IMG/VR virus record: IMGVR_UViG_3300042477_000769
Origin: a virus
Lineage: Duplodnaviria > Caudoviricetes
Reading direction: 5' to 3' (one strand)
DNA length: 64,000 nucleotides
Positions 1,022 to 32,370 of this stretch are shown here, piece after piece. Within the stretch, counting starts at the first letter, position 1. Each line of letters starts with the position of its first letter. Both the position numbers and the translations under genes were made by a program. The notes under the pieces were generated by a model that saw nothing but the letters and a program-made list of their open reading frames with translations, was not told the DNA's origin and searched no databases.

Positions 1022-1384
1022 ATGAAAGATAATAATAAAAATAACAGGAGAAATTCCTCGAAAAAGGCATCGAAAGGGGGTGAATCTAGCCAGATCTTAG
1101 TCAACGATCAATTCGCACACATTGAAGCTGTGCAAGCTCAACCTTTAGAGGTTAAAGTTTATAATAATAACTTTGATAAAGCGCTTAAAGCTTTCCGAGC
1201 CTTAGTTCAAAAAGAAAGAGTACTCTCCGATTTTAAAGAAAAACAAACTTACGAAAAGCCCTCTGATAGACGTCGGAGAAAACGTAATGAAGCCAAAAGA
1301 AAGAAACATGAGTCAACTTTCAAAAATACTACTAAAAGTAGTAAATATCGGCCTCAAAAAAACTCTGACTCTAATCAAAGTTAG
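1022..1384 (+). CDS. rpsU: 30S ribosomal protein bS21 with N- and C-terminal extensions
   Basis: Core EVKVYNNNFDKALKAFRALVQKERVLSDFKEKQTYEKPSDRRRRKRNEAKRK matches the bS21 pattern (V..n..dkAL..F..........y.EKPS.rRrrk). Confidence 0.85.
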   Translation: MKDNNKNNRRNSSKKASKGGESSQILVNDQFAHIEAVQAQPLEVKVYNNNFDKALKAFRALVQKERVLSDFKEKQTYEKPSDRRRRKRNEAKRKKHESTFKNTTKSSKYRPQKNSDSNQS

Positions 1385-1389
1385 GTAAT

Positions 1390-2028
1390 ATGTCAAACAT
1401 TGGAAAAATTAAGGTTTATAAAAATAAAGCTAGAGAAGTTCCTGAAAAGTTTATAGCTTATGTTCCTCAATATCAAGCATTAGGTATTGAGCCTCATGAA
1501 TATAAATCCCCCAATATGGGGACAGAAACATATCTAACGGTTAAAAAAACAACATCAGAACAAAAACCCCCTGTCATGGTAAGACAACCCTATGCAGAAG
1601 CAGTGCCTTCTCCAGTAGGGAGAGGTCGCGGTCCGTTGCCTAACATTGGAAACAATGTGGAGCAATCCTGGTCAGGAGTGGATGAAGAATTAATAGATGA
1701 TGTTTCTTTAGACCCTAATCATCCAATGATAGACAATAATGAATACGTTTCTAATAAGGCGTTAGGACTGCCGCCTTCATTAGAATCTCCTGCTAAGCCA
1801 GCTGAACATAATTCTCCATTAATGGAAACTCTTCAAGATTTAGAAGAAGATAATTATATTTTATTTTTGAAAAATTCACCTTTATGCTCAGGACCATTAG
1901 AGTATGTGCAAGAACAAACTACTGCTTTAGTGTTTGGAGAACATGAATCTTTCAAAAATACTCTTTTTTCATTAGATGATATTTTAGTATTCAAACGAAT
2001 AAAATTAAAAGTCGGAGTATTTCTCTAA
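1390..2028 (+). CDS. hypothetical protein
   Basis: 212-aa ORF, tightly packed in the operon. Confidence 0.7.
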   Translation: MSNIGKIKVYKNKAREVPEKFIAYVPQYQALGIEPHEYKSPNMGTETYLTVKKTTSEQKPPVMVRQPYAEAVPSPVGRGRGPLPNIGNNVEQSWSGVDEELIDDVSLDPNHPMIDNNEYVSNKALGLPPSLESPAKPAEHNSPLMETLQDLEEDNYILFLKNSPLCSGPLEYVQEQTTALVFGEHESFKNTLFSLDDILVFKRIKLKVGVFL

Positions 2029-2041
2029 TATCCGATCAGAG

Positions 2042-2833
2042 GTGAATGTGGAACAACGCAAAGCGTCAGAAGTTCTTCTAGAATTAGAAGCTAAAGTGAA
2101 TGCTATTCTAGATATTATTAGAACTCAAGATTTAAATAATAAGATTATTTCTAATAAATTGAACTCTACTATTCAATTATTAGAGAAATTAAATTCTGCA
2201 CCACCTGCACCTCCTAAAATTGAAGCAATTAATACTTTACCCACATCCACACACACACCTGCGCCTACGTCTTTTTCTGAGCGTGAAATACCTATTTCGG
2301 CCGAAAATAAAATCTCGGTAGAAGAGGCGCCTAAAGGTTTTAGAAGAAATTCTCGACCAGAAACTTTTGCTGGTGATGATTCTTTCTTACCAGAAAATAA
2401 TAAATATCCAGTACAAGTGCCCAAAATGTCCAACCAGCCTCCTCCAGGGAGGGCCGTAGAAGAAGTATCTGTTCCTAAAAAAACAGTTAAAAACTCTAAA
2501 AATTTATCAGAAAATACTACAGAATCAGTAGTATTAAATTCAGAAAATTTAAATGCAGTTCCAGTCTCTCAACGAGTAGTTAATGCTCATGGGAAATCAT
2601 TATTTTTAGCAGATGTGGAAGTTATTGACTTAAAAAGCATGCAATCAGTTTCTAAGACTAGAACTAATGGTACAGGAAAATGGTCAGCCTCTTTGCCTGT
2701 AGGGAATTATAGAGTTTTTATTAGAAAATTAGATTCTGCTACTAAAGAAAAATTGGAAGTAAAACAAGATATTGTAGTAGATGGTCAACAATCTCCATTA
2801 GAATTATCAGTAATTATTATTAAATCTCAGTAA
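2042..2833 (+). CDS. hypothetical protein: N-terminal coiled coil, Pro-rich linker, C-terminal carboxypeptidase-regulatory-like beta-sandwich
   Basis: C-terminal KTRTNGTGKWSASLPVGNYRVFI resembles the T..dG.f...l..G.Y.v pattern of prealbumin-like/SdrD-B folds. Confidence 0.55.
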   Translation: MNVEQRKASEVLLELEAKVNAILDIIRTQDLNNKIISNKLNSTIQLLEKLNSAPPAPPKIEAINTLPTSTHTPAPTSFSEREIPISAENKISVEEAPKGFRRNSRPETFAGDDSFLPENNKYPVQVPKMSNQPPPGRAVEEVSVPKKTVKNSKNLSENTTESVVLNSENLNAVPVSQRVVNAHGKSLFLADVEVIDLKSMQSVSKTRTNGTGKWSASLPVGNYRVFIRKLDSATKEKLEVKQDIVVDGQQSPLELSVIIIKSQ

Positions 2834-2839
2834 ACTGCT

Positions 2840-2865
2840 ACTGCCTTTATGGCAGTGACTTTTTT
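2840..2865 (+). terminator. possible intrinsic terminator
   Basis: ACTGCC-tttat-GGCAGT stem followed by gacTTTTTT, just after the stop at 2833. Confidence 0.45.
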
Positions 2866-2914
2866 AGGCCATAGATAAGGCTATGGGTATTCTGGCGAAG
2901 AAGTTATAAACTAT

Positions 2915-3181
2915 ATGGAATCTTTAATTGAATCCTTAATTAATCTTTCGGAAGAAGAACAACAAAACTTTCCATTTAAAGTGGGTGATCATTGTATAAT
3001 TAATGACTGTAAGCTATTTCACCCAGGCTTAGTAAATCAGAAGGCTATTGTAGTAAAAATTGGAAAATTACCATTTGATTTTATTAAAGTTGCTAGAATA
3101 ATAGCGGAACAACATACAGTTCCAGGCTATACTAGTTGTTTTGAGTGGGATATTGTTCCAGAGTTATTAACTCATATTTAG
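2915..3181 (+). CDS. hypothetical protein
   Basis: 88-aa ORF; FKVGD motif suggests an SH3-like barrel. Confidence 0.55.
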   Translation: MESLIESLINLSEEEQQNFPFKVGDHCIINDCKLFHPGLVNQKAIVVKIGKLPFDFIKVARIIAEQHTVPGYTSCFEWDIVPELLTHI

Positions 3182-3852: not shown

Positions 3853-5110
3853 GTCAATTACCACCAGCACAAGGCTGGTGGCTTGTAAGTAGCATCGCTG
3901 CTCCTACCATAGGCTGATTGACTTCAGCCCCATGGGACAGCTGATAGCTATCCCATGCTCGTCTGCTAATATTTCTACTAGCATTTAAGTCTGCATTTAG
4001 TTTAAAACTACATCCTTGACAACAAAAACTAACCTGAGTCTTCCTGTTTTTCTTATCAACATAACCGCATTTACTGCACTGTTGACTCGTATAAGCAGGA
4101 TTAACATGTACTACTTGTATGCCTTTAGCTTGACCTTTATAAATCAGAAATTGTTCTAATTGATAATAATTCCAACTATTCAAGGCTGATCTCTGAGGTT
4201 TTCTAACTTTTTGCCGTCTAATACCATTTAATTTTTCTAGTACTAGAGTGTCACCTGGATTTAAACTACTGATAATCTGTTTACTAATTTGATGGTTAAT
4301 GTCTGCTTTAAACCGTTTTTCTTTACCTGAAAGGTATTTAAGATGCCTTTTAGCAGATTGACTTCCACTTTGTTGTAATTTTCTTCTTAATGTTTTGTAC
4401 TTGTGACATATTGACTTAAGTTTACTTCCACAATAAAACTTATTATCTGAGGTAACCGCTAACTTTTTGATACCGCGATCAACTCCTAAAAATTTACCAT
4501 TAACCTTTATCTCTTCTTTCTCTTTCTCAAAAGAAACATGTAGGTAAACTTGGCCTTTTCTAATCAGAAGATCGGAGCTGGTGTATTTCCAATCAGTAAA
4601 GTAATGCTGATAATATCTAGGAATATCTAGCTTAATTTTCTTTCTACCAGAAAGCGTTAAAATAGATACTATTCCTTTGCGAATAGAATAGTTATTACAA
4701 TCTAGTCGAATCGCAGTTAATTTAGACTGCGGACATTTGCTATACTTATTTTTACTCTTAATACTTTTAAGAGCTTCTGCGGCTTTAGTTCTAGCAGAAA
4801 TAGCTAATTGAGACGGTAAGTTAAAGTTAGTTCGACACTCTTGGTAGGTTAATTTATGCAGTTTAATAGAGTTGGTTATTTTTTTTTGATACCCTACTTG
4901 ACACACCAGGTTAAAAGCAGCGGTATAAGCTTGCAGTGAAGGTAGAATTTCTTCTACCTTGACATCAAGTTTTAATTTGACCGTTCTATTTAACCTCATA
5001 TATAGTGATATATCTATTAATATAGAAAGTTTTATGTAAACGAAAATTTATTTAGATAACAGAAAGGGGATGCAATTCCTCCCACAGCACAAGGCTGAGG
5101 GTGTCCTTGC
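3853..5110 (-). mobile_element. IS200/IS605-family element carrying tnpB only (IS1341-like, non-autonomous)
   Basis: Subterminal hairpins with the same loop at both ends: CCACCAGC-acaag-GCTGGTGG (3861-3881) and CCCACAGC-acaag-GCTGAGGG (5081-5101); only large gene on the minus strand; exact ends inferred. Confidence 0.85.
3854..4999 (-). CDS. tnpB: TnpB RNA-guided endonuclease
   Basis: RuvC-I LGVDRG, RuvC-II LVLEKL, zinc finger CSKC/CQGC, RuvC-III NADLNASRNI; 381 aa. Confidence 0.95.
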   Translation of the reverse strand: MRLNRTVKLKLDVKVEEILPSLQAYTAAFNLVCQVGYQKKITNSIKLHKLTYQECRTNFNLPSQLAISARTKAAEALKSIKSKNKYSKCPQSKLTAIRLDCNNYSIRKGIVSILTLSGRKKIKLDIPRYYQHYFTDWKYTSSDLLIRKGQVYLHVSFEKEKEEIKVNGKFLGVDRGIKKLAVTSDNKFYCGSKLKSICHKYKTLRRKLQQSGSQSAKRHLKYLSGKEKRFKADINHQISKQIISSLNPGDTLVLEKLNGIRRQKVRKPQRSALNSWNYYQLEQFLIYKGQAKGIQVVHVNPAYTSQQCSKCGYVDKKNRKTQVSFCCQGCSFKLNADLNASRNISRRAWDSYQLSHGAEVNQPMVGAAMLLTSHQPCAGGN

Positions 5111-6362: not shown

Positions 6363-6797
6363 ATGATTATTACCAATAATGAAGATGCTTTGCGCGTTAC
6401 TTGCGAAGAAGTAAAATTAGAAGAAGTTAATGAATTAATTTCTACTTTGGAAAATGAACTAAGCTATGCCAATAACTTAGGAAAAGGCGGAATTGGATTG
6501 GCGGCCCCTCAAATTGGAATAGCTAAAAAAATTGCTATTATTAGATTGCCCAATATGTCGTTAAATTTAATTAACTGTCATATTGATCAAGGTTATGATT
6601 TGTCCCTCTTTAAAGAAGAGGGCTGTTTGTCTTTTCCAGGACGAGTAGAAAATACGATGAGATTTCAAGAGGTTCATATTTCAAATAATTTAACCTATCC
6701 ATATAAATTTATCGCTCAAGGATTAATTTCTGTCGTATGTCAACATGAGTTAGATCATCTAGGATCTACTTTATTTATGGATCGTAAAGCCAAATAA
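6363..6797 (+). CDS. def: peptide deformylase
   Basis: All three motifs present: GIGLAAPQIG, EGCLS, QHELDH. Confidence 0.95.
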   Translation: MIITNNEDALRVTCEEVKLEEVNELISTLENELSYANNLGKGGIGLAAPQIGIAKKIAIIRLPNMSLNLINCHIDQGYDLSLFKEEGCLSFPGRVENTMRFQEVHISNNLTYPYKFIAQGLISVVCQHELDHLGSTLFMDRKAK

Positions 6798-7066: not shown

Positions 7067-7384
7067 ATGTTTTTTCTTCTTGAAGAAAATGACTTTAAAA
7101 TCCAAAATGGAAGACAAGCCTTGTATTTTTATTCTACTTGGATGCCGTTTCATAAGAAAATGAATTCCATGATTTCAAAAATAGAACAAAAATATAAAGA
7201 TATTTCCTTTTGCGCTATAGATGTAGATCTGTTTAAGTCTCTGACTAAAAGATTTAGCGTAACCTCTATTCCAACTGTGATAATTCTTGTCAATGGTATC
7301 GAGAAAAAAAGGATTACCGGAATAGTAATGACAAGTGCTTTTAAAAGTATGTTTGCTGATATATGTAATACTAATATGGAGTAA
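7067..7384 (+). CDS. thioredoxin-fold protein lacking CxxC
   Basis: LYFYSTW.., IDVD, cis-Pro loop VTSIPT, KRITG; the WCxxC position reads WMPFH. Confidence 0.75.
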   Translation: MFFLLEENDFKIQNGRQALYFYSTWMPFHKKMNSMISKIEQKYKDISFCAIDVDLFKSLTKRFSVTSIPTVIILVNGIEKKRITGIVMTSAFKSMFADICNTNME

Positions 7385-13327: not shown

Positions 13328-14306
13328 CATTACTCTCGAAGAATCAGTTGAGCAAATAGTTTCTGGAATTCCTAGAACTATTGCTATTACCACTAATATT
13401 GCTTCCTCCATTTTTTATACGTTAGATGGTAGTACTCCCAATTTATATTCTAATATTTATACTAGTCCAATTACTATGCCTACTAGTAACTTAACAGTTA
13501 CACTAAAAGTTTTAGCTACTAATGGCATAGATACTAGCTCTATTATTACTGAAACATATGTAACTAATTTAGTAGAGAATACTAATGCTAGATTGCCTCG
13601 TTCAGGAACTACGGCTAATGCTGGCGAGAATATTCCTAGTTTATATCCTTACGGGAATACCCCTATTCAGCCTAATGCTAATTTTGAAAATCCCGCAGAT
13701 GCCGGTATTACCGTCGATAATCCGGCCTTACCAGCTACTTCTACTGGATTTGATGGTGCTGGTAATCCTAATGCTTTTACTAATGAGCCTTTTAATACTA
13801 CTAATTATAGTATCAAGTATTCAACTACCGATTGGCAAAATAAACCCGGTTATGGCATTGGCACTTTGCCAGGACAAGTAACTATCGATATTAAGCCTCA
13901 ACCCCCAGAAACTACGAATCAAAATAGTAATACTTTTGATCCTAAAGCTTTCGTTGTCTTTCAAGATGCAGCAACTGAAGACCCTAATCTGCCGCCGTCT
14001 ATTAATAGAATGCATTTTTCATCTGAAGATTCTAATATCAATCGAGATGGAAATAATTTCTTTAATAGCGGATTAGATGCACCACCGACTAGTGGCACCT
14101 TTTTAAGGTCTCATTTTAATCCTAGAACTAATTCTATTACTTATTATTATTTAGATACGTGGAGTAATAAATGGATTATTTCCACGGCTCCGTTTAATCC
14201 AAATGGTGGATGGGATGGAAATATGGCCGGGATGGCGTTGTCGAGGCAGAGTGGGGCGGGGTTTGTATTTGAATGGCTCCCCTTCACTCGTCGAGTACTA
14301 TTCTAA
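13308..14306 (+). CDS. Fn3-associated/CHB_HEX_C-like domain protein, probably virion-associated
   Basis: IFYTLDGSTPN...Y..PI motif; Thr/Asn/Pro-rich remainder. Confidence 0.7.
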   Translation: MNMAVISITLEESVEQIVSGIPRTIAITTNIASSIFYTLDGSTPNLYSNIYTSPITMPTSNLTVTLKVLATNGIDTSSIITETYVTNLVENTNARLPRSGTTANAGENIPSLYPYGNTPIQPNANFENPADAGITVDNPALPATSTGFDGAGNPNAFTNEPFNTTNYSIKYSTTDWQNKPGYGIGTLPGQVTIDIKPQPPETTNQNSNTFDPKAFVVFQDAATEDPNLPPSINRMHFSSEDSNINRDGNNFFNSGLDAPPTSGTFLRSHFNPRTNSITYYYLDTWSNKWIISTAPFNPNGGWDGNMAGMALSRQSGAGFVFEWLPFTRRVLF

Positions 14307-14311
14307 ACCTT

Positions 14312-14974
14312 ATGCTGTGCAAACTCTGTGGACTAGACAAAGAACTAAATTCTAGCAATTTTCAACAGGGCACCAATAAAAGAAATGGCATTAACCATCA
14401 TTATTGGTATCGAACTTGTCGAGCGTGTAATCGAGATAAAATTCGAGATAAAAATAAAAGATTTAAAGAGAAAAATAGAAAAAAATTAGCAGATAAACAA
14501 AAATTATATCGTGCTTCTCGACAAGAACATTATTCTCAAATAGCCAAAATTTGGTATCAAAAAAACAAAGAAGACGTTAAAATCCGCATCAAAAATAATT
14601 TGAAATTAAGACGACAAACAGATCCTCTATTTCGTTTAAAATTTAACATCTCCGCCAATATTCGTGCCTGTATTAAAAAAAATTATCAACCGGTAAAGAA
14701 TTTTCTTCCATATTCTATTGCGGAACTGAAAAAACATTTAGAACAACAATTTGAACCCTGGATGAATTGGAATAATTATGGTACCTATTCTACTTCCTGG
14801 AATGATCAGGATCCCCAAACTTGGACTTGGCAAATAGATCATATTATTCCTCATAGCACATTTAATTACACTTCACTACAAGACCCTCTCTTTCAAGATT
14901 GTTGGGCTTTAAGTAATTTACGGCCATTAAGCTCTAAAGCCAATTTATATAAAAGCAATAAAATTATTAAATAA
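14312..14974 (+). CDS. HNH-type homing endonuclease (paralog 1)
   Basis: N-terminal CKLC/CRAC, basic helix, WQIDHIIP...CWALSNLRPL...N..KSN. Confidence 0.8.
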   Translation: MLCKLCGLDKELNSSNFQQGTNKRNGINHHYWYRTCRACNRDKIRDKNKRFKEKNRKKLADKQKLYRASRQEHYSQIAKIWYQKNKEDVKIRIKNNLKLRRQTDPLFRLKFNISANIRACIKKNYQPVKNFLPYSIAELKKHLEQQFEPWMNWNNYGTYSTSWNDQDPQTWTWQIDHIIPHSTFNYTSLQDPLFQDCWALSNLRPLSSKANLYKSNKIIK

Positions 14975-16594: not shown

Positions 16595-17842
16595 ATGCAC
16601 ATTGAAGTAAGAGAAATTGAGCCGTGTAAATTATGCGTTCAGTATACTGCTGAACCGAGTGAAATATCAGATAAAAAAGAAGAGGTGGTTGCTCGCTTTA
16701 AAAAAGCGCCTGTCTCTGGATTTCGGACTGGAAAAGTTCCGACAGATGTTATCAAAATGCATTATCGTACCCAAATCGAAGATGCATTGAAAGTTGCTTT
16801 AGCTGAAGAGGCATATCATAATGCTTTATTCGAAAAAAAACTTCGACCTCATGGAGCACCGAAGCTAAATTCAGCTATTTTAGTAGATGGTAAATTTGTC
16901 TGTGAATTTGAAATGCATACTAAACCAGAATTTCAACTCATGACTTATGATGGTATGCAGATTCCTCGACCACATGAAGCCTTGACGGTGACGGAATTAA
17001 CTGAAAAAATGTTACAGGAATTACGAGTCAAATATGGCGATTCTGTACCCTATGCCGATAATGAATTTGTCCAAGTTGGAGATACTGTGATTGTAGATTA
17101 TGAAGGATCTATTAATGGTGAAGTATTGCCTCATTTGTCAGCCACTGGAGAAATGATTACAGTTGGCCATAGTAATTTGCCGCAATTTGATGACAATGTC
17201 TTAGGGATGTCTATTGGTGAAACTAGAGAATTTGATATTGTAGTACCGCAAAATAGCTTACCTTCTCTCAGTGGCAAAACTGTACATTTAAAAGTAACTC
17301 TTAATATGGGTTCTAAAAATGTACCTCATCCATTAGATGATACCTTGGGTCAAAAATTAGGCAAGAAAGACCTACAAGAATTAAGAATGGCCGTAGGCGC
17401 CACCGCGATGGCCACGGTAGAAAATAAAGTTAAGGAATCTATTAATGAAGCGGTAGCTATTAAATTAGTCGAGATGCATGAAATTAACGTTCCTAATTGG
17501 ATGGCTTTATCAGAAGCTCAATATTTAGTCCATGGTGCTAAATTAGATTGGAATGCTTTGAGAGATGAAGATAAAGATATGTATGTAGCCATGGCGGCTA
17601 AGAATGTTAAGCTATCTCTGATTCTAGATAGAATTAGAGATGATAACCCAGAGGCACAACTAACTGATCAGGAAGTATTTGATATGATTAAGAGAAATCT
17701 AATGCAATCTAATATGCAACAACCATTAGAGCAAGTAGTGCAGCAAATGCAAAAGAGCGGCTATTTACAAGTATTGTTTGCTCGAATTAGAGATGAGCAT
17801 GCGATGGATTTTGTGACTAAAAAAGTTCAACTTATTGATTGA
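16595..17842 (+). CDS. tig: trigger factor
   Basis: Ribosome-binding signature GFRTGKVP, FKBP-like GDTVIVDYEG..NGE, helical C domain; 415 aa. Confidence 0.92.
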   Translation: MHIEVREIEPCKLCVQYTAEPSEISDKKEEVVARFKKAPVSGFRTGKVPTDVIKMHYRTQIEDALKVALAEEAYHNALFEKKLRPHGAPKLNSAILVDGKFVCEFEMHTKPEFQLMTYDGMQIPRPHEALTVTELTEKMLQELRVKYGDSVPYADNEFVQVGDTVIVDYEGSINGEVLPHLSATGEMITVGHSNLPQFDDNVLGMSIGETREFDIVVPQNSLPSLSGKTVHLKVTLNMGSKNVPHPLDDTLGQKLGKKDLQELRMAVGATAMATVENKVKESINEAVAIKLVEMHEINVPNWMALSEAQYLVHGAKLDWNALRDEDKDMYVAMAAKNVKLSLILDRIRDDNPEAQLTDQEVFDMIKRNLMQSNMQQPLEQVVQQMQKSGYLQVLFARIRDEHAMDFVTKKVQLID

Positions 17843-18174
17843 GGAGATTAAATATGAGTAAGAAAAAAGATACCCAAGCCCCTAGTTCGTTTCCAGAAAA
17901 ATGGTTTAAAGTAGTTCAGGCAATGCCAGAATTTAAAGATATTGCTGATGCTGCGAGTATAGATGATTTAAAAAAAATTATCGTAGATTGTGAAGGCAAT
18001 ATCTATACTATTGACCAAGATAAAGAAAATAATAGCAAATTAATTGCGGCTCAAGAGTTGGTTAAAGAGTATAAAGCACCTTATACAGATGCTATTAAGG
18101 CTCAAACGGCTAAAATTAAATATGCATTATTCTTATTAGAAGGCAAAGGTGTCGACTTAGATAATAAGGATTGA
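17839..18174 (+). CDS. hypothetical helical protein
   Basis: ORF; likely ATG at about 17854 after GAGGAG. Confidence 0.65.
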   Translation: MRRLNMSKKKDTQAPSSFPEKWFKVVQAMPEFKDIADAASIDDLKKIIVDCEGNIYTIDQDKENNSKLIAAQELVKEYKAPYTDAIKAQTAKIKYALFLLEGKGVDLDNKD

Positions 18175-18175: not shown

Positions 18176-18460
18176 GTGAAAGTAACTAAATTTAATATCC
18201 AATCCTGCTGTGGTAAAACCGCGATTATTTTTAAAACTGATAGGCCATTATCTAAAAATCATTTGGCTTTCTTGGTTTCTCAAGGTTTTAAAGAAACTCC
18301 ACATTTTACTGCCGCAGGAATACTTTATGTGGATAATTCGGACTTTATTTTGAACGGCCCGTTAGGTTCTGATAGACTAACAGTTAAGTGCAAGAGAAAT
18401 GAAGCTGAATGCACCCAAAAGATCAATAATTTGGAGGTGTTACTTCAGCAGGTGGAGTAA
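18176..18460 (+). CDS. hypothetical protein
   Basis: 94-aa ORF with GTG start after AAGGA. Confidence 0.6.
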   Translation: MKVTKFNIQSCCGKTAIIFKTDRPLSKNHLAFLVSQGFKETPHFTAAGILYVDNSDFILNGPLGSDRLTVKCKRNEAECTQKINNLEVLLQQVE

Positions 18461-18463: not shown

Positions 18464-19126
18464 ATGGCTAGTAGCACTAATTCCATTGTTCATGTTAGAA
18501 AAAAGTTTCATTCCTTGCATGATTTAATATCTACTTCCTACCATGAGGCAGGCCATACTATTTATGGCTTACTTCATGGTATGAATGTTGAATCGGTGCA
18601 AGTCTTTGAAAATAAGAAAACCAAAAGAATTGATGGAATTACCTATTATAATCCTCCTGAATTAGACGAAATTCAGGATGAACAATTAAAATTGGCCCTG
18701 GCTGAAAGCGAGGTTTGCCTGTGTTATGCAGGATTAATATCCGAAAAAAAGCTATTTAAATCTATTTCTGGATTAGATTCTTTCCCTATGTTTCTAAAAA
18801 ATGGCTCCTCGACTGATATCGCTGAAGCCTTATCTATTATAATTAAATTTAATTTAGCCGAACCGGGTCTTAAAAGATACCAATATAAGAAGAAATTAAT
18901 TAAAAAAATTAATCAAGAGTTAACAGAACACTGGGATGCTGTGACGGCAGTGGCTCATTCCTTAAATAATAAAAAAAGAATCAACTTCTTTGAATTAAAA
19001 GAATTGTTAATTAAAAAAACTAACCATCGAGAATTTTGGAAGCAAAAGTTTAAAATTCAGGAAAAATTATATATAAATCGTACCGACCTTGACGAAATAA
19101 AAATAAAATCTATCTTGTTACCTTAA
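18464..19126 (+). CDS. stand-alone peptidase M41 (FtsH protease domain)-like zinc metalloprotease
   Basis: YHEAGH, ..YAGLISE (compare llGGraAE), GSSTD (compare GAsnD, third ligand). Confidence 0.75.
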   Translation: MASSTNSIVHVRKKFHSLHDLISTSYHEAGHTIYGLLHGMNVESVQVFENKKTKRIDGITYYNPPELDEIQDEQLKLALAESEVCLCYAGLISEKKLFKSISGLDSFPMFLKNGSSTDIAEALSIIIKFNLAEPGLKRYQYKKKLIKKINQELTEHWDAVTAVAHSLNNKKRINFFELKELLIKKTNHREFWKQKFKIQEKLYINRTDLDEIKIKSILLP

Positions 19127-19228: not shown

Positions 19229-22200
19229 ATGACTGACTTTGTCTCGTTACATAATCAGACGGATTTCTCTATTCTTGATTCTTTAATGTCCCCCAAAGCA
19301 CTCTTTAATCGAGCCAAAGAATTGGGCCAATCTGCAGTCGCAGTCACAGATCACGGCACACTAGCCGGAGCCTGGGATTCCTTAAAAGCTTCCCGAGAGA
19401 CTGGCGTTAAACTTATTATGGGCTGTGAAATCTACTTTGTAGAAGATGCCCAAAATATTACCGATAAATTTAGACATTTAACCCTGTTAGCTAAAAATGC
19501 TAATGGTTATAAGAACTTACTCACTCTCAATAAAAAGGGCTTTGATCAGGGCTCTTTTATTGGCAAGAGAGTATATCCTATTGTCGATTGGAAGTTGTTA
19601 GAACAATGTTATAACGGGCTAATTTGTCTCACTGGTTGTGGCAATGGAATCATTAGCCAATTATTAATGAATAAAAAGTTTGATGAAGTAGAAACTACTG
19701 TCCTGAAACTGAAACAGTTATTTGGAGATAATTTAGGCATTGAAATTCTTCCCAATAATATGAAGCGGGGCTCTAATATTTATAATGATGAAATTGATCA
19801 ACAATTTCTCAATATGAAGCTGATTAATTTGGGCAAAACACACAATATTAAAATTGTGCCCACCTGCAATGCTCATTATGTGAAGAAAGAAGATCATGAT
19901 ATTCATGATGTTTTTCTAGCTATTGGTTCTCATCAACCAAAATATTCTAATTTTAGAATTAAATATAATGTACCAGATTTTTATCTTAAATCTGCCGAAG
20001 AAGTTAAAAACTTCTTTGCTAGAAATCATGGCGAAGAATTAGCAGAAGAATGGTGTAATAATACGGTATATTTCGCCAATTTATGCGAAACTCCAGATTG
20101 GATTGACCCTAAATACTCTAATCCTTCTGGAAAAGAATTACCGATCTTCCCGGTCAAAGATGAGACAGATTATCCTGAATTTGTACACTGGCTGGAACTT
20201 CAACCGCCAGAAGTTAAATTATTAGATATTGATAAACAATATTTGAGATTTAAATGTCAAGCCGCTTTTTCCTCTCGTATTAAGGATTTATCTCCTGATA
20301 ATATGGAAAACTATCAACAGCGCTTGTTAGAAGAGCTAGATGTTATTGAATATCATGGCTTTTCTAGCTACATGTTAATTGTGGCAGATTATATTAATTG
20401 GGCTCGTCGTAATGAGATTGCCGTAGGAGAAGGTCGAGGCTGCCTCACGGGTGATACCCAAGTCTTAACTACTCAAGGATTTAAATTAATCAAAGACCTG
20501 TCTGTGACAGATACTGTGTTTAGTCATACTGGAAATATGAAAACTATTTCTAAATTATTTAAATTTGACGTATCCAATGAAAAATTATTAAAGTTTAAAA
20601 CACAGCAATCGTTTACGGACCTCACCATGACTTCGGATCATAAGGTGCTAATTGCTAAATCTCAAGATTTAGATAAATATTATTTTTACCCACCTAAAAA
20701 AGTTAAAGGTAAAATTAAAAGCTTTAATCCCCACTTGGAATGGGTGCCGGCTCACCAAATAAAAGTAGGAGATTATTTCTTTACTCCTAAATTAAATCGT
20801 TCCATTGACAACTTATCAGATATTGATCTTGCTCAATACAGCGACTCAATCATAGAAAATGATTTTATTGTCAGCAAAATTTACTTTACTAGCCCCCTCT
20901 CTTTACGCGCTTTACATAAAGTATCTCCAATCAGCTTTGAAAGTTTGAGAAAAATCAAAAATAACAAACCTATTGCTGATACACAAATTAATTTACTTCA
21001 ACAATACCTGTCTTCTACTGGGTCGTCTCTTCAAGATTTTGTCAATCATAAAAACTATAAATATAGCCGAATTCAAAGATTTATTAAAATTGATAATGAT
21101 TTCGCTTATTTATTAGGCCGATGGATCGGTGATGGATCCTTTCATGGAAATAAAGGGATTTCTATCTGTTTTAATAGTAAAGATATCGTAGGTCGAGAAA
21201 AAATAAAATCCTATCTCACTAAACTAGGATTTTATGTCTGCCAAGAAAATAGAAAAAATAATAATACCTTATTAACTGTTTCTAATAAGGCTATGTATTC
21301 TTTATTTAAAGAATTATTTCCGAATTATCATAGTTCTCAAACTAAACATATGCCAAATATTTTTCGTTTATTTTCTGATGAACTAATTCGTCATCTGTTA
21401 TTAGGATTATTAGAATCAGATGGTTGTGTTAATAATTATGAAAAAATAAAAACTACTAGCCAAACTTTAGCTCTGCAAGTAAAAGAAGCGTTAAATTATT
21501 TATCACTCCCCTCCTCTATTTATACAGAAGAAAACCCGAAAAGATATCAAGTAGCTACCTCTACTGCTTTTACCATTGCTTTTAATGGAATTAAAACTAA
21601 ACCTAATCCACATATCCACCGAACAAATCAAGGTTTTTATAGTAAAGTAGTTAGTATAGTGGAAACTACTGCTGATTTTGTCTATGATTTTACTGTTCCA
21701 GATGATCATAGCTATCTTACTACCAGTGGAATAGTTCATAATAGTGTAGGAGGCTCTTTAATTGCTTTCTTACTAGGAATTCATCAAGCAGACCCGATTA
21801 AGTATGATCTGATTTTTGCTCGATTTCATAATAAGGAGAAGAGCAGCTTTCCGGATATAGACACCGACTTCGCCCCCTCAGGTCGCGAAAAAGTCCAAGC
21901 CTATGTTCGCCAAAAATATGGAGAGGAACACGTAGCCCACGTCTCTAACGTTAATACTATTACCCCCAAGGTGTATGTTCGCGATATTGCGAGAGCCTGC
22001 GAATTAGGCGGCTCCAGAGAAGAAGCCGTTCGGATTGGTAATGATGTTGCCGATTGCATTCCATCAGATATTCATTCCATTGATGATGCGTTAGCTAAAG
22101 TTCCATTATTTGCTGAATATTGTAAAAAATATCCAGAATTAGAAAAGTATAAAAGCATTTGCGGAAAATATCGAGCTTGGTCTACTCATGCCGGAGGAAT

Positions 22201-23215
22201 TATTATTTCTGCCCGACCACTAACCGGATTAATTCCCCTGAGACGAGATAAAGATGGTGCCCTAGCTATTGAATATGATAAAGATAAAGCAGAAGAAAAC
22301 GGTCTAGTTAAAATGGATACTTTAGGTCTCTCCACTTTAGATATTATTGGAGAAACTTATCGTATTATTAAAGAACGCGGCAAAGAAGTGCCTCCCGATC
22401 AATTAGATTATGATGTTCATGATGCTCCTTCTTATGATTTGATTGCTAATGGCGATACCTTTTGCGTCTTTCAATTAGGGACTAGTGCTGGTACCGTAGA
22501 CTTATGCCGTCGAATTAAACCAGATAGTATCAATGATTTAGCCAATATTAATGCCTTGGCCCGACCCTCCGCTCGTGAGATGAGAAATGATTTCATTAAA
22601 ACTAAAAATGGAGGTAAGCCGGTTGCTTTATTGCATTCTAAATTAGCTCGAGCTTTTAATAGTACTTATGGCTTCGGATTATATGAAGAATGTTTAATGT
22701 ATCTGGCTCAAGATATTGCTGGTTGGAGCTTGCACTCAGCTGATAGATTAAGAAAATTAACTAAAGAAAAAGGTAAGAATCCTAAAAAGGTCCAACAATG
22801 GAAAGCAGAATTTATTGCTGATTCTGTTAAAATGGGCGTTCAAGAATTAATTGCTCAACGTATATGGAGTGAGGTAATTGAGCCTTTCCAGGGATATGGG
22901 TTCAACCGTTCCTTGTCCCTTTTTGAAATGATTGATATATATTCTAATGATGGTAGATTTATAAAGTCTAAACCTATAGGAGAAGTAAAACCAGGAGAAT
23001 ATGTGCGTTCACGAGATGAAGCTACTCAAAAAGAGATTTTTGTCGAAGTAAAGGCGAATCATGATCATGGTATTTTACCTTTAGTAGAGGTAGAATTAGA
23101 AACCGGCGAAACAGTCAAATGTACTATGGATCATAAGTTTAGAATTCAAGAAAATAAAGAGATGGTGCCATTATGGCAAATCTTAAGAGACAATTTATCA
23201 ATAGTGTTAGGTTAA
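19229..23215 (+). CDS. dnaE: DNA polymerase III alpha (DnaE) N-terminal part, with one cis intein and a C-terminal split-intein N-half
   Basis: PHP (LHNQT, TDHG), GRG|SVGGSL, FPDIDTDF, KMDTLGL, LYEE, FQGYGFNR. Confidence 0.95.
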   Translation: MTDFVSLHNQTDFSILDSLMSPKALFNRAKELGQSAVAVTDHGTLAGAWDSLKASRETGVKLIMGCEIYFVEDAQNITDKFRHLTLLAKNANGYKNLLTLNKKGFDQGSFIGKRVYPIVDWKLLEQCYNGLICLTGCGNGIISQLLMNKKFDEVETTVLKLKQLFGDNLGIEILPNNMKRGSNIYNDEIDQQFLNMKLINLGKTHNIKIVPTCNAHYVKKEDHDIHDVFLAIGSHQPKYSNFRIKYNVPDFYLKSAEEVKNFFARNHGEELAEEWCNNTVYFANLCETPDWIDPKYSNPSGKELPIFPVKDETDYPEFVHWLELQPPEVKLLDIDKQYLRFKCQAAFSSRIKDLSPDNMENYQQRLLEELDVIEYHGFSSYMLIVADYINWARRNEIAVGEGRGCLTGDTQVLTTQGFKLIKDLSVTDTVFSHTGNMKTISKLFKFDVSNEKLLKFKTQQSFTDLTMTSDHKVLIAKSQDLDKYYFYPPKKVKGKIKSFNPHLEWVPAHQIKVGDYFFTPKLNRSIDNLSDIDLAQYSDSIIENDFIVSKIYFTSPLSLRALHKVSPISFESLRKIKNNKPIADTQINLLQQYLSSTGSSLQDFVNHKNYKYSRIQRFIKIDNDFAYLLGRWIGDGSFHGNKGISICFNSKDIVGREKIKSYLTKLGFYVCQENRKNNNTLLTVSNKAMYSLFKELFPNYHSSQTKHMPNIFRLFSDELIRHLLLGLLESDGCVNNYEKIKTTSQTLALQVKEALNYLSLPSSIYTEENPKRYQVATSTAFTIAFNGIKTKPNPHIHRTNQGFYSKVVSIVETTADFVYDFTVPDDHSYLTTSGIVHNSVGGSLIAFLLGIHQADPIKYDLIFARFHNKEKSSFPDIDTDFAPSGREKVQAYVRQKYGEEHVAHVSNVNTITPKVYVRDIARACELGGSREEAVRIGNDVADCIPSDIHSIDDALAKVPLFAEYCKKYPELEKYKSICGKYRAWSTHAGGIIISARPLTGLIPLRRDKDGALAIEYDKDKAEENGLVKMDTLGLSTLDIIGETYRIIKERGKEVPPDQLDYDVHDAPSYDLIANGDTFCVFQLGTSAGTVDLCRRIKPDSINDLANINALARPSAREMRNDFIKTKNGGKPVALLHSKLARAFNSTYGFGLYEECLMYLAQDIAGWSLHSADRLRKLTKEKGKNPKKVQQWKAEFIADSVKMGVQELIAQRIWSEVIEPFQGYGFNRSLSLFEMIDIYSNDGRFIKSKPIGEVKPGEYVRSRDEATQKEIFVEVKANHDHGILPLVEVELETGETVKCTMDHKFRIQENKEMVPLWQILRDNLSIVLG
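20441..21742 (+). other. cis intein with LAGLIDADG endonuclease (434 aa) in dnaE at GRG|S
   Basis: C1 CLTGDTQV, block B MTSDH, LLGRWIGDG and LLGLLESDG, C-terminal VYDFTV...GIVHN then Ser+1. Confidence 0.93.
22910..23212 (+). other. split intein N-fragment (101 aa), Ser1
   Basis: SLSLFEMI block A, block B KCTMDHKF, ends at the stop codon. Confidence 0.85.
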
Positions 23216-23216
23216 A

Positions 23217-24431
23217 ATGGGAAATGTCAGCAAACCAATAGATTATTATCTTCAAAAAATTCCAGAACCATTTAGATCAAATGTTTCTTTAATGGAAGAC
23301 TATCAAGGTAATAGAACTAAAATATCTTTTAATTTTTCATGTGGGTGTCAGATACAAGAACAATTTAAGGTTTTTCTTAAGAGGCCGCGATTTGATTTTT
23401 GCACCTCATGTGCTAAGAAAAATAGTCAAACTTATAGTTGTCAGTATTGCTGTCAAGAATTTACTGTGCAACGACATTTGGAAAATTGTCAGCAAAAATG
23501 CCAAAATAAATATGCACAACTCATTTTGGGTACAGATTATGTAATTTGCCAGATTTGTAATTTACATGCAAGAAGTCTAGGGGCACATGTTACTAAGAAG
23601 CACAATATATCTCATAAAGAATATCGTGAAAAATATGGAAGTTTAATTTGCACTGAGGCTTCTAAAAATTATAAAGAAAGCGGTCAATATAATAGAGAGT
23701 GGATTACTCGTGCTCATTTAAATGGCACAGATTTAACCGAATATAGAAAAAAGTTATCTACAGCTGTTAAAGAGGCAATAATGTCAAATCCGGAAGAACG
23801 AAAAAGACGTTCCGAGTTAATGGCTACTATTAATAAAACAGAGAATATGCGGATTAAATCTTCTAAATCGGCCAAAATAACCTCTGCTAAACCAGAAATT
23901 TTAGAAAAAAGAACTAAGCAATTACAAAAATGGAGAGAAGAAAACCCAGAGTTATTTTATAACCAATGTACCGCTCCAATGATTAAATCATTTCAAAGTA
24001 AACCAGAAAGAATATTATTTAATTATTTCTCGCAATTAAAACCTTTTAATTTTAAAAGAAACCAATTTATAAAATCTAAGTATTTTACTAATTTTTCTAA
24101 GAAGAAACAAGTAGATATAATTGATTTGGATAATAGAATTTATATAGAGTTTGATGGTAAAGTTCATTTTAAGCCTATTTTTGGCGATTCTGTTCTCTTA
24201 AAAACTAAATTAAGAGATCAAGAATTAGAAAAAGTTATTACATCTAACAATTGGATTCTAATTAGAATTAGCTACGATCAATTTGTTTATACTACTAAAA
24301 ATATTAATAAAATTAAACATGATGCATCTTATTTCAAACCAGAAAGCCTTCAACAAATAGAAGCAATACTTAAATCAAAGCAACCAGGTGTTTACAAAAT
24401 CGGAGAGGCATATAATAGCTCAAAATCATGA
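23217..24431 (+). CDS. free-standing Vsr/DUF559-like homing endonuclease between the split dnaE halves
   Basis: Zinc fingers (CQICNL..LGAHVTKKH), basic repeats, C-terminal QVDI......IEFDGKVHF...RDQ......ILIRIS; ATGA overlap with the next gene. Confidence 0.8.
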   Translation: MGNVSKPIDYYLQKIPEPFRSNVSLMEDYQGNRTKISFNFSCGCQIQEQFKVFLKRPRFDFCTSCAKKNSQTYSCQYCCQEFTVQRHLENCQQKCQNKYAQLILGTDYVICQICNLHARSLGAHVTKKHNISHKEYREKYGSLICTEASKNYKESGQYNREWITRAHLNGTDLTEYRKKLSTAVKEAIMSNPEERKRRSELMATINKTENMRIKSSKSAKITSAKPEILEKRTKQLQKWREENPELFYNQCTAPMIKSFQSKPERILFNYFSQLKPFNFKRNQFIKSKYFTNFSKKKQVDIIDLDNRIYIEFDGKVHFKPIFGDSVLLKTKLRDQELEKVITSNNWILIRISYDQFVYTTKNINKIKHDASYFKPESLQQIEAILKSKQPGVYKIGEAYNSSKS

Positions 24432-25666
24432 CTAATATTAAAACTATTAAATACATTGGCAATCATGCTACGTGTGATTTGGAAGTAGATCATCCGGATC
24501 ATCAATTCTACTTATCGAATGGAATGTTAACCTCAAACTCTCATGCGGTCTTATATTCCATGACCAGTTATAAGACTTCTTATTTAAAGGCCCATTATCC
24601 GGTTGAGTTTTTATTGGCTAATTTAATGGCCGAAGTAAAATCTAATGCTCCAGATGCAGGGAGTAATATCAATAAAATTAAGAAAGAATTAAAAGCACAC
24701 AAGGTTAAGATTTCTCCTCCGGATATTAATTCGTCTAATTTGACTTATACTATTTCTGAAGGTAATAAATTATTAACCGGTTTAGATTCTTTAAAATTCG
24801 TGGGAGACGATGCGATTAAAGATATTATTCAAAAACGTCCTTTCAAAAGCTTTTTTGATTTCATGCATCGAGTGGATTCCAAAAAAGTCAGAGCTAATAG
24901 TATTCAAGCCTTAGCGGCAGCTGGTGCCTTAGAAAAATTTGGTATCCCTAGAAAGCTTATTTTCTTATATTGTTCAGATTTTAGAAAGAAATTACAAGTT
25001 TGGTTAAAGAAACATGACCCTCAACAAGAAGAGTTTATTTATCCTTGGCCTTCGGAACCGGATTGGTCATTGTCAGAACAATATGCGTTAGAGCAATATT
25101 ATTTAGGAGAATCTTTTATTTGTAAAGCGCCTGAGGCGTATGGTAAGTTTTTCAAAAGCCCTCATCATGTTATTTATGAAATTAAAAAAGCTAACAACAA
25201 AACCAAGATTTCGCCCATTAAAGGAATAGTTAAAGATTTCTTCGAATTCAAAGTTAAAAAAGAGACAAGTAGTTATTATGGTCAATCTATGGTGAAAGCT
25301 ATTATTGAAGATAAAGAAGGAGACCAATGCTCTTGTACTATTTTTCCAGATCGTTGGCAATTAATACAGAAACGATTAAAAGAATTAAATAGCAAAGCTA
25401 TATTTGATGTTGGCTTGGCTTTAAGTTTTTCTGGCAGTGTTAATACTTATGAAGATGAAGTTGGCATTATTTTAGAAGAATTATTAGATATTTCTCCAAT
25501 TCCAGCTTTACCTACTGATTTAAAAGCCAAGCGAGTCAATTTAAAGGAAGCTAAATTAAAAAATAAAGAGCCGGTGACTGAGGCGAAAAATGTTTTGGAT
25601 GAAATTGAAGATTTATTATATGATGAGGGTCTAATTGATTTAGATACCGATCCGGATAACGATTAA
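24428..25666 (+). CDS. dnaE: DnaE C-terminal part preceded by a 37-aa split-intein C-fragment (24428-24538)
   Basis: MTNIKTIKYIG...TCDLEV...HQFYLSNGMLTSN|SHAVLYS..SYKTSYLKAHYPVEF; PPDINSS, HhH region, OB-fold tail. Confidence 0.93.
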   Translation: MTNIKTIKYIGNHATCDLEVDHPDHQFYLSNGMLTSNSHAVLYSMTSYKTSYLKAHYPVEFLLANLMAEVKSNAPDAGSNINKIKKELKAHKVKISPPDINSSNLTYTISEGNKLLTGLDSLKFVGDDAIKDIIQKRPFKSFFDFMHRVDSKKVRANSIQALAAAGALEKFGIPRKLIFLYCSDFRKKLQVWLKKHDPQQEEFIYPWPSEPDWSLSEQYALEQYYLGESFICKAPEAYGKFFKSPHHVIYEIKKANNKTKISPIKGIVKDFFEFKVKKETSSYYGQSMVKAIIEDKEGDQCSCTIFPDRWQLIQKRLKELNSKAIFDVGLALSFSGSVNTYEDEVGIILEELLDISPIPALPTDLKAKRVNLKEAKLKNKEPVTEAKNVLDEIEDLLYDEGLIDLDTDPDND

Positions 25667-30079: not shown

Positions 30080-30790
30080 ATGACAACCTTTGGTGAAATT
30101 AGCTGGAATGATGACGTCTTTGGCGGCGATAATAAAAAAAATGTCAATAGTAAAGATTTATTCCTTCGACTAGAGGAAGGATCTAACGAAATTAGATTAA
30201 TTACTCAACCATTTCAATATTTAGTACACAAATATAAGAAAGAAGGAGATCCTGGATTTGGACAGAAGATTTCTTGTTCAGCTATCCATGGCAGCTGTCC
30301 CCTTTGTGAATTAGGTGATAAGGCCAAACCCAGATGGTTTCTGGGAGTAATTTCCAGAAAAACTGGAACTTATAAAATCTTAGATATTTCTTTTGCTGTC
30401 TTTTCTCAAATTCGTAAGTTAGCGCGCAATACTCAACGATGGGGAGATCCGACCAAATATGATATTGATATTGTGGTAGATAAAAATGGCGGAGCAACTG
30501 GATATTATTCAGTGCAACCTATTTCTAAAGAGGCTTTGTCGGCGGCAGATCAACAAATTAAAGACAATGTTGATTTAGATGATTTGAAACGCCGAGCCAC
30601 TCCATTAATGCCAGATGCCGTTCAAAAGAGAATGGATAAAATCAATGGCGTTGGTGAATTTGCCACCGCAGGAGCGCCTGCGATGAAAAAGGCGGGAGCT
30701 AAACCGGTAGCTAAACCAGCAGTCGTCAGCATGACCGATGACGAAGATATGGATGATGCATTTCCGGCCTATAATAGTGATGCAGAATGA
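30080..30790 (+). CDS. single-stranded DNA-binding protein (gp32-like)
   Basis: FLRLEEGSNEIRLI, H...C....CPLC zinc site, YDIDI, acidic tail DDEDMDDAF; AGGAG RBS. Confidence 0.75.
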   Translation: MTTFGEISWNDDVFGGDNKKNVNSKDLFLRLEEGSNEIRLITQPFQYLVHKYKKEGDPGFGQKISCSAIHGSCPLCELGDKAKPRWFLGVISRKTGTYKILDISFAVFSQIRKLARNTQRWGDPTKYDIDIVVDKNGGATGYYSVQPISKEALSAADQQIKDNVDLDDLKRRATPLMPDAVQKRMDKINGVGEFATAGAPAMKKAGAKPVAKPAVVSMTDDEDMDDAFPAYNSDAE

Positions 30791-30812
30791 CCTAAAAAAT
30801 AGGTAGTAATTT

Positions 30813-30842
30813 AAAAGGGCAAGTAGTAACTTGCCCTTTTTT
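30813..30842. terminator. intrinsic terminator, possibly bidirectional
   Basis: AAAAGGGCAAGT-agta-ACTTGCCCTTTT-TT, perfect 12-bp stem. Confidence 0.85.
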
Positions 30843-30853
30843 ATTGGATAAAA

Positions 30854-31429
30854 GTGAGAAATATGACTCGGATTTTAGGGATAGATTGTTCTTCTACGAC
30901 CATTGGTTATGGAGTGTTAGATATTGATGCTAATAATAACATTAGTTTAGTAGCGGTCTCCTATCTTAAACCGAATAAAAAAGGCTCGATTATTGAAAGA
31001 ATTGTTTCGACTAGAGATGAGATTCAAAAAATAATGAATAAATACCAGCCCGATTTAATTGGCATTGAAGATATTATACAATTTATGCAAGGCAAGAGTA
31101 CGGCGAAAACGATTATTACATTGACTACTTTTAATCGTATGATTGGGCTGTGCGCCTTCGATTTTTTAAAAAAGAGCCCGAGCTTATTTAATGTAATGAC
31201 CATCCGTCACGGATTAAAATTAAATAAAACGCTGCCAAAAAAAGAAGATATTCCGGAGCTTGTGGCCCACCATTTAAAGATTACATTTCCTTACGAGCGC
31301 TCGGCCAAAGGTAAAAAAAAGGGCGCCATCAAAATTGAAAATTTTGACATGGCTGACGGTTTGGCGGTAGCGCTATATTATGCATTTATAGTAACTGGAA
31401 AAATTAAAAGAAAAAATAAGGTATTATGA
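30854..31429 (+). CDS. ruvC: RuvC-like Holliday junction resolvase
   Basis: ILGIDCS..TIGYG, IGIED, DMADGLAVA. Confidence 0.85.
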   Translation: MRNMTRILGIDCSSTTIGYGVLDIDANNNISLVAVSYLKPNKKGSIIERIVSTRDEIQKIMNKYQPDLIGIEDIIQFMQGKSTAKTIITLTTFNRMIGLCAFDFLKKSPSLFNVMTIRHGLKLNKTLPKKEDIPELVAHHLKITFPYERSAKGKKKGAIKIENFDMADGLAVALYYAFIVTGKIKRKNKVL

Positions 31430-32370
31430 AATTAAGTGAAGCTTATAATATTCTGGGAGTACAGCCCAATGCCGACCCTGAAGCCGTGAAGAAGCAATAT
31501 AAGAAATTAACTCGAGAATTTCATCCGGACATTAACAAGGAAGCCGGAGCCGAGGAAAAGTTTAAAAAAATAAATGAAGCTTACCAAGTGGTCACCTCGG
31601 GCAAAGAAGAGGGCGCGCAAATTCCTTGGCAAGGCTTTAATCCATTTGCGAATATGGATCCTTTTGGAATGAATCAACAAGTTATTCATCCGGCAGATCC
31701 TGTATCTTTGCATATTAATATTTCTTTTAAAGATTCTATTTTAGGATGCAAGAAAGAACTAAAGTTTAATAGAAAAATTAAATGTACTGAGTGTCAAGGT
31801 AATGGTAAGACTGTCATCCCCAGTAATTGTACGGAATGTCAAGGTAAAGGGAGAAAAGTAGTAACTCAAGGTCATATGACTTTTGTTACTACTTGTAATA
31901 AATGTTATGGCAAAGTAGAGACTAAAAATTGTGTGAAATGTAATTCACAAGGAACTTTGACCACTGATACGGCTATTAGTGTTAATGTTCCAGGCGGTAT
32001 CCAAAATGGAAATATCTTAAGATTAAGTCATATGGGTAATTTCATTACTACTTTTGGCCCATTGGATCAATATAGTGATGCTCATTTATCGGTGTCAGTA
32101 GAAGCCGATCCGGAGTTATCATTACATGGGACAGATGTAGTTTGTACAGTTTCTATTCCATTAGTCCAGGCTATTACTGGCACTACTAAAACAGTTAGAA
32201 CTATTTTAGGATCTCAAGAGGTAATGGTGCCGGCTAAATCTAAACATAAAGATGAAATCATTCTTACTAAATTAGGGGTCAATGGAGTCGGCAATCAAAA
32301 GGTAGTATTACATGTAGACTATCCAGAATTCACTGATAGTATGATTCAAGCTTTACAGGAGGTTGTGTGA
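31426..32370 (+). CDS. dnaJ: DnaJ chaperone (J domain, zinc finger, C-terminal domain)
   Basis: YKKL..EFHPD.N, F..INEAY, CTECQGNG/CTECQGKG repeats, VPGG..NG..LRL. Confidence 0.92.
   Translation: MKLSEAYNILGVQPNADPEAVKKQYKKLTREFHPDINKEAGAEEKFKKINEAYQVVTSGKEEGAQIPWQGFNPFANMDPFGMNQQVIHPADPVSLHINISFKDSILGCKKELKFNRKIKCTECQGNGKTVIPSNCTECQGKGRKVVTQGHMTFVTTCNKCYGKVETKNCVKCNSQGTLTTDTAISVNVPGGIQNGNILRLSHMGNFITTFGPLDQYSDAHLSVSVEADPELSLHGTDVVCTVSIPLVQAITGTTKTVRTILGSQEVMVPAKSKHKDEIILTKLGVNGVGNQKVVLHVDYPEFTDSMIQALQEVV

Follow-up and report, generated by a model that had tools for sequence, protein, structure and literature searches.

Genes for the ribosomal protein bS21 and for peptide deformylase (PDF) are known from huge phages, where bS21 proteins with N-terminal extensions, together with PDF, have been read as a means of taking over host translation; it was proposed that the bS21 extensions bind RNA (Al-Shayeb et al. 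2020, PMC7162821). We analyzed a stretch of 64,000 nucleotides from a phage (Duplodnaviria; Caudoviricetes; IMG/VR record IMGVR_UViG_3300042477_000769), which we call the window, and which encodes, between positions 1022 and 32370, these two proteins along with a full-length trigger factor (TF) and a DnaJ co-chaperone. To our knowledge, bacteria have no ribosome-bound chaperone other than TF. As a viral gene, it is not described in the literature that we searched, and full-text searches for TF in megaphages or jumbo phages, or for phage-encoded TF, found nothing relevant.

The main text of the study of huge phages does not mention TF, DnaJ or chaperones (PMC7162821). Automatic annotations reading 'Trigger factor', DnaJ and methionine aminopeptidase (MetAP) are present in its supplementary GenBank files for BM_PHAGE_CIR_35_55 (437,772 bp), GD_PHAGE_CIR_35_878 (of equal length) and SR-VP_PHAGE_40_16 (426,196 bp). 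The paper assigns GD_PHAGE_CIR_35_878 and SR-VP_PHAGE_40_16 to 'Judaphage', and its trees group BM_PHAGE_CIR_35_55 with both (PMC7162821). The presence of S21 and PDF in huge phages is therefore already published, while the TF is deposited as an annotation but undiscussed. As to the deformylases, viral PDFs devoid of the C-terminal helix retain activity in vivo, as was shown for the PDF of phage Vp16 (PMC5591237).

A full-length trigger factor in a phage-borne family

We read open reading frames (ORFs) under translation table 11 and scored domains against Pfam and NCBIfam equivalog cut-offs. The TF gene (16595..17842, + strand) encodes an N-terminal ribosome-binding domain (Trigger_N, E 2e-21), an FKBP-type domain (FKBP_C, E 1.7e-5; 25.5 bits against a cut-off of 21.1) and a C-terminal arm domain (Trigger_C, E 4e-11; 43.5 bits), all of which score above their Pfam cut-offs. 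The protein also passes the NCBIfam 'tig' equivalog TIGR00115, scoring 206.7 bits where 180.2 are required, and carries the signature loop, GFRTGKVP, at amino acids 42-49. A structure model (AlphaFold) built from ten family members is confident, with a pLDDT of 87.6. Its best Foldseek matches are structures of the full-length E. coli TF in the free and ribosome-bound states, 1w26 and 2vrh (428 columns, TM score 0.67). For the N domain, comparison with 1oms gives a TM score of 0.81.

This TF belongs to a large family. At least 585 homologues were found at E<=1e-10, and the best 120 of these are all about 415 amino acids long and 56-73% identical, with many on contigs of 340-480 kb. One of the homologues, with 57% identity, is located on a contig of 462,167 bp. 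At E<=1e-30, the TF matches at least 162 clusters (50% identity) within a library of 1.84 billion cluster representatives; for about 110 of the TF cluster representatives, the phage origin is extrapolated from 15 members whose context is known. No close cellular relative was found when 185,579 species genomes were scanned with the phage consensus. A looser scan returned bacterial TFs from many phyla that are only 22-29% identical.

A sequence-only reading of the window had singled out TF as the least expected member of the gene set, and had suggested a phylogeny of tig against bacteria. In a FastTree analysis of 202 rows, a branch with 100% support parts the bacterial TFs from the phage-type family. 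In an IQ-TREE analysis (LG+C20, 61 rows), 28 bacterial TFs fall on one side of a branch with 99% support and all TFs from viral contigs on the other, a side that includes two more 'bacterial-looking' TF groups. For these trees the bacterial sample was picked by motif pattern, and no root was inferred. The phylogeny is consistent with a single old acquisition of the gene, followed by long evolution inside phages. The view of TF as the least expected member was borne out. The INPHARED phage records contain no credible TF: the matches are less than 30% identical and lie on short or mislabelled records. Because 124 INPHARED records do contain PDF genes, TF does not generally accompany PDF in phages.

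Among 121 cluster representatives, no part of the TF is better conserved than the signature loop (mean 0.65, compared with 0.41-0.47 for the domains). Within it, G42 is kept in 99% of representatives, R44 in 98%, G46 in 94% and K47 in 90%; the last loop residue varies among P, T and S in many family members. Such conservation is as expected from selection for ribosome docking, and we predict that the phage TF docks at the ribosome exit. The N domain also contains a conserved pair of cysteines, C11 (93% of the 121 representatives; window 16625-16627) and C103 (87%; window 16901-16903). In the alignment with E. coli TF, which does not extend to C11, the residue opposite C103 is not a cysteine.

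Identity of bS21, peptide deformylase and DnaJ

The genes named by the sequence-only reading, i.e., rpsU, def, tig, dnaJ, a thioredoxin-fold gene and an AAA ATPase gene, were all recovered at the stated positions, uninterrupted, on the + strand and with strong matches to their families. The bS21 gene (1022..1384, + strand) has a core at amino acids 43-95 that matches PF01165 (E 4e-16; 58.8 bits against a cut-off of 27) and TIGR00030 (58.1 against 28.95 bits), both above cut-off. This core is preceded by a basic N-terminal extension of 42 amino acids and followed by a basic C-terminal tail. A tblastn search of INPHARED with bS21 returned nothing, the query probably being too short and too low in complexity.

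The PDF gene (6363..6797, + strand) encodes a deformylase of the short viral type (PF01327, E 1e-23; 84.2 against 22.8 bits). The catalytic motifs GIGLAAPQ, EGCLS and HELDH are all present, and with them the metal ligands Cys, His and His. The score against the equivalog TIGR00079 is 90.7 bits, below the cut-off of 103.95, as is expected for a truncated viral form. The protein keeps the eta-3 turn, FMDR, and ends three residues later. The alpha-3 helix by which bacterial type 1B PDFs such as that of E. coli are tethered to the ribosome is absent, as has been described for viral PDFs (PMC5591237), and alignments to PDFs of the E. coli type end at about residue 146 of 168. Matches in PDB include the PDFs of phage Vp16 (5mtc) and cyanophage S-SSM7 (3uwa).

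In five sister phages (G001, G002, G004, G005 and G009), the helix of PDF is replaced by a SecA-type SEC-C zinc tail (PF02810, above cut-off), e.g., at L004:1480-2025 (G002) and L131:455-967 (G009). This tail is absent from the PDFs of the window, G008, G011, G012 and G013, and we found no SEC-C coding pattern anywhere within the window. SecB and ribosomes are the reported binding partners of this type of domain (bioRxiv 10.1101/613315). A literature search combining 'SEC-C motif' with 'peptide deformylase' found nothing.

The DnaJ gene (31426..32370, + strand) matches PF00226 (67.1 bits) and PF01556 (80.5 bits), and the best PDB match of its product is 6jzb (E 1.6e-38). The J domain carries the HPD motif (FHPDINK). 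Of the four CxxC motifs in the zinc finger, two are canonical and two degenerate, and its PF00684 score narrowly misses the cut-off (30.2 against 32.7 bits). The Gly/Phe linker extends only about 19 residues to the next aligned block, compared with about 47 in 6jzb, and retains a few G and F. The equivalog TIGR02349 is missed, with 196.9 against 377.2 bits. In the complete relative G002, neither an Hsp70 nor a Cpn60/GroEL is encoded, and the phage DnaJ would therefore have to use host DnaK.

Phage context and conservation of gene order

The families of these proteins are typically bacterial, and the sequence-only reading had itself raised the prospect of a bacterial/phage chimera. However, four independent phage contigs of IMG/VR that come from other samples (G002, G003, G010 and G011; tblastn) match the entire 1-32.7 kb collinearly, one gene after another; of these contigs, G002 is 447,763 bp long and rated complete. 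The shared order is AAA+ ATPase, bS21, PDF, thioredoxin, SbcCD and PD-(D/E)XK nuclease, followed by TF, DnaE, RuvC, DnaJ and a zinc-ribbon gene. The GC content of the window is even and low (0.28-0.37), and the region of the gene set contains 30-odd tightly packed ORFs on the + strand. The same contig carries a large terminase subunit gene interrupted by an intein (52142..54472, + strand; PF05876, Intein_splicing), a phage marker outside the gene set whose product is about 26% identical to annotated phage terminases (tblastn). Also present are an intein-split DnaE, SbcCD, RuvC, a RecA-nuclease fusion, several homing endonucleases and one TnpB element. No DNA match to the window was found in INPHARED. 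Given the collinearity and the composition, the contig is from a genuine huge phage, and a chimera is excluded. The window is probably part of a Judaphage-type huge phage, whose complete relatives are 426-462 kb long.

As for its host, Shine-Dalgarno sequences are found at 12 of 33 starts, a count too crude to serve as a hint. The gene-taxonomy profile of relatives is ambiguous (Proteobacteria 4.2%, Firmicutes 3.0%; supplement of Al-Shayeb et al., PMC7162821).

The phage-type TF is carried by 14 IMG/VR contigs, with identities of 30-55%. Wherever these contigs reach, the strand and the order S21, PDF, TF, DnaJ are constant. Counting only contigs that extend to the position of the gene in question, bS21 is present in 9/9 related contigs, PDF in 10/11 and DnaJ in 12/12. 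A type I MetAP that passes TIGR00500 is encoded in G002, which fits the theme of protein maturation put forward by the sequence-only reading. Another group of viral contigs (G015-G021), which is more divergent, has retained the order TF, DnaE, RuvC, DnaJ, and its fragments yielded neither S21 nor PDF. The TF of this second group (L118, G020:8000-27999; L119, G016:56000-75999) is longer, at 432-439 amino acids, and more bacterial-looking, and a sigma-70-like gene lies near the TF arrangement.

The bS21, PDF, TF and DnaJ genes are thus identified, intact, deeply conserved, in a phage context and collinear. Their reading as intact phage genes, conserved over deep divergence, is upheld, and each of the four is long-lived and under purifying selection. 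The segment of 1-32.7 kb appears to be an anciently inherited collinear block in which genes for replication and recombination are combined with genes for making and maturing proteins.

Probable role of the gene set and alternative explanations

It might seem that the four genes form a dedicated, coupled pathway, as the sequence-only reading proposed in treating them as one pathway that leads from initiation through deformylation and co-translational folding to Hsp70. This is probably not the case, and the four genes are not a module. We consider the most likely role, which we favor with some confidence, to be a looser one, in which the phage proteins work with host ribosomes and host DnaK and raise their capacity to initiate translation, process N-termini and fold proteins. 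The phage bS21 would enter host 30S subunits. The short phage PDF would act free and untethered, and the type I MetAP of the lineage would add to N-terminal processing. The phage TF would dock via its signature loop at the exit of the host ribosome and shield emerging chains, while DnaJ would pass clients to host DnaK. In this way, the gene set may supplement, or substitute for, host factors that run short during the phage's burst of protein synthesis. We infer ribosome binding, the use of host DnaK, the timing and the benefit.

It is important to emphasize that several points weigh against this role, or against coupling of the genes. The four genes are dispersed among SbcCD, a kinase, nucleases, DnaE, RecA and RuvC and do not form an operon. 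The survey of co-occurrence, which had been suggested as a check, returned one inherited block, i.e., a single evolutionary event, and a single collinear inheritance provides no independent evidence of functional coupling. The window's PDF has no recognized ribosome tether. In G010 (266 kb; G010:C1:174290-180203), the whole block is kept and PDF alone has been lost, between an HNH gene and thioredoxin. Among the NCBIfam equivalogs, TF and bS21 pass their cut-offs, while PDF and DnaJ score below; the latter scores fit a truncated viral PDF and the shortened Gly/Phe linker of DnaJ. The status of MetAP, Hsp70 and GroEL is taken from relatives, the window's own genome beyond 64 kb lying outside the search. 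Finally, DnaJ is translationally coupled to RuvC, and TF adjoins DnaE, an arrangement that would also fit a role in handling the replisome.

This last point leads to an alternative in which DnaJ, and possibly TF, would serve the phage's machinery for DNA replication and recombination. They would bring in host DnaK for the assembly or remodeling of its complexes, and the bulk folding of nascent chains would be at most a secondary task. Host DnaJ and DnaK serve the replication of phage lambda. The 4-nt overlap of DnaJ and RuvC is found both in the window and in the very distant contig G020, TF is always located between the PD-(D/E)XK nuclease and DnaE, and the second group of contigs keeps the order of TF, DnaE, RuvC and DnaJ in fragments that show no S21 or PDF. 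However, the best-conserved feature of TF is its ribosome-docking loop, which points to the ribosome and not to DNA machinery. Moreover, the neighborhood of a phage gene often mirrors the timing of expression and not a shared function, and the lineage's bS21, PDF and MetAP have no role in replication. We regard a replication role for these chaperones as unlikely, although it has a stronger claim than the explanations that follow.

Another possibility is that the phage bS21, at the mRNA entry, and TF and PDF, at the exit, jointly convert host ribosomes, in line with the refitting at both sides that the sequence-only reading suggested. Such ribosomes would preferentially translate and fold phage proteins, or exclude host factors such as host TF or the signal recognition particle (SRP). 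Features peculiar to the phages would fit this idea, i.e., the phage-specific basic extensions on bS21, the SEC-C tail on PDF in five relatives, and a TF family that has features of its own (Cys11/Cys103) and is far from all cellular TFs. However, selectivity for phage mRNAs or proteins lacks support, and the PDF of the window is untethered and, in G010, dispensable. In its substrate profile, the Vp16 PDF does not differ from the E. coli enzyme (PMC5591237), and the genes in question are not co-localized. We therefore consider specialized ribosomes improbable. The same doubt applies to a more pointed version, in which the phage TF is a device for taking over the exit site that displaces host TF or competes with SRP and SecA on host ribosomes and that, with bS21 and, in sister phages, a SEC-C-tethered PDF, creates phage-specialized ribosomes; we think this a poor prospect. 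If it were true, such ribosomes would help phage proteins to fold or would stop the export of host proteins.

An assembly artefact, a chimera or a recent capture of decaying host genes, for which one could cite the bacterial housekeeping character of all four families and the mostly short or mislabelled bacterial fragments among INPHARED TF matches, can be dismissed almost entirely, given the uniform GC content, the placement of the genes on one strand among phage genes on a contig with a terminase, the collinear block in independent phage contigs from other samples, cellular TF identities that nowhere exceed about 29%, and the intact catalytic and docking motifs of PDF, TF and DnaJ.

TF is old, widespread and strongly conserved across a huge-phage lineage, in which it is kept with bS21, PDF, DnaJ and, in relatives, MetAP. 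This suggests that co-translational protein maturation, besides initiation, limits these phages. In addition, the phage TF family provides a large natural collection of TFs that have diverged far while keeping the docking loop, and may be useful for studying the minimal needs of such a chaperone.

Other features of the window

Directly upstream of bS21 lies a gene for a single-module AAA+ ATPase of the classic clade (33..998, + strand; PF00004, E 3e-19), which occupies the same position in G002, G003, G010 and G011. Its best relatives in PDB are VAT, Cdc48 and YjoB, at about 1e-35. A thioredoxin gene (7067..7384, + strand; PF00085, E 2.6e-11) is located two genes downstream of PDF and is collinear in the same four contigs.

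TF is followed by three genes on the + strand, the first two of them small. The first (17839..18174), which overlaps the TF stop and is likely to start at ATG 17854, is conserved in G002 (70% identical) and also in G011. It has no match in Pfam or NCBIfam, and an Atlas search returned only phage hypotheticals, the sequence being present there from residue 6 on. The second (18176..18460) is found in G002, G003 and G011, and likewise has no Pfam or NCBIfam match and only phage and bacterial hypotheticals in Atlas. The third (18464..19126) encodes a stand-alone domain resembling the FtsH protease (M41-like), with the motif SYHEAGHTIYG. This assignment is weak: the PF01434 score is below cut-off (E 8e-5; 23 against 29.9 bits), and the alignment with the active-site helix of E. 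coli FtsH (410-480) in PDB has an E of 0.087, with HEAGH present. Among the four relatives compared, an ortholog was seen in G002 only. The M41-like domain and the AAA+ ATPase, 17 kb apart, could be the halves of an FtsH-like machine, subject to the weak protease assignment. Together, an ATPase of the unfoldase type and this weakly assigned protease-like domain may point to a broader proteostasis set.

On the other side of TF, two unassigned ORFs at 14273-14974 and 15758-16561 flank the PD-(D/E)XK nuclease. Both match one gene elsewhere in G003 and G010, and the corresponding block of G002 has neither. They resemble insertions beside the TF gene that are paralogous and may be mobile.

DnaJ is flanked by a gene for a RuvC-like resolvase (30854..31429, + strand; PF02075, E 1.7e-9) that runs 4 nt into the start of DnaJ, and by a gene for a double zinc-ribbon protein (32367..32693, + strand), which overlaps the DnaJ stop and has tblastn matches directly after DnaJ in G002, G003, G010 and G011. 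The three genes (30854-32693) are thus joined by stop-to-start overlaps of 4 nt each.

Upstream of PDF, a gene of the TnpB/IS605 family (3854-4999, - strand) is located between an MT-A70 methylase and an HNH gene. Because the latter two are adjacent in G002, the TnpB gene was inserted recently in the phage of the window. DnaE (19229-25666) consists of two genes, being split by a LAGLIDADG intein and by a free-standing gene (23217-24431) between the halves. The intervening gene is common to G003 and G011. It is unmatched in G002, which has a single ORF of 1180 amino acids at the position of DnaE. Further downstream, a nucleotidyltransferase resembling the CCA-adding enzyme is fused to a J-like domain (46076-48427). 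We considered this domain as a second DnaJ and rejected it. Its tripeptide is YPD and not HPD, its score is slightly under the Pfam cut-off, and it is therefore unlikely to be functional.

Comparison with known systems

The phage TF resembles bacterial Tig (1w26, 2vrh) in its length, its fold and the order of its three domains, in the GFRxGKxP loop and in passing the equivalog threshold. It differs in sequence, sharing only 22-29% identity with the cellular TFs found, in belonging to a separate phage-borne family, and in the Cys11/Cys103 pair, which is a feature of that family. The genomic setting is also different: the phage gene lies beside DnaE, whereas bacterial tig lies beside clpP-clpX.

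Like the window PDF, the viral PDFs of Vp16 (5mtc) and S-SSM7 (3uwa) are short, contain the three catalytic motifs and lack the C-terminal ribosome-binding helix. The window PDF is about 32% identical to that of S-SSM7, and has the eta-3 turn FMDR, which is absent in the PDF of Vp16.

The phage DnaJ shares with bacterial type I DnaJ the J domain with HPD, the zinc finger and the C-terminal domains, but has a shorter Gly/Phe linker and two degenerate zinc motifs, and scores below the TIGR02349 cut-off. Full-length DnaJ is found in 41 INPHARED records, 15 of which are Prevotella Lak megaphages; the DnaJ of the latter is 28% identical to that of the window.

At the level of whole genomes, the supplementary tables of a study of lake bS21 phages of Bacteroidota, in the part available to us, list DnaJ and no TF or deformylase; the genomes covered there are at most 331 kb and belong to other clades (Chen et al. 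2022, PMC9723584). The closest system is that of the Judaphage genomes (426-462 kb), which encode bS21 with N-terminal extensions, PDF and a TF of the same 415-amino-acid, 'E-x-C-K' type as that of the window. With TFs that are 53-57% identical, the phage of the window is a different species from these relatives.

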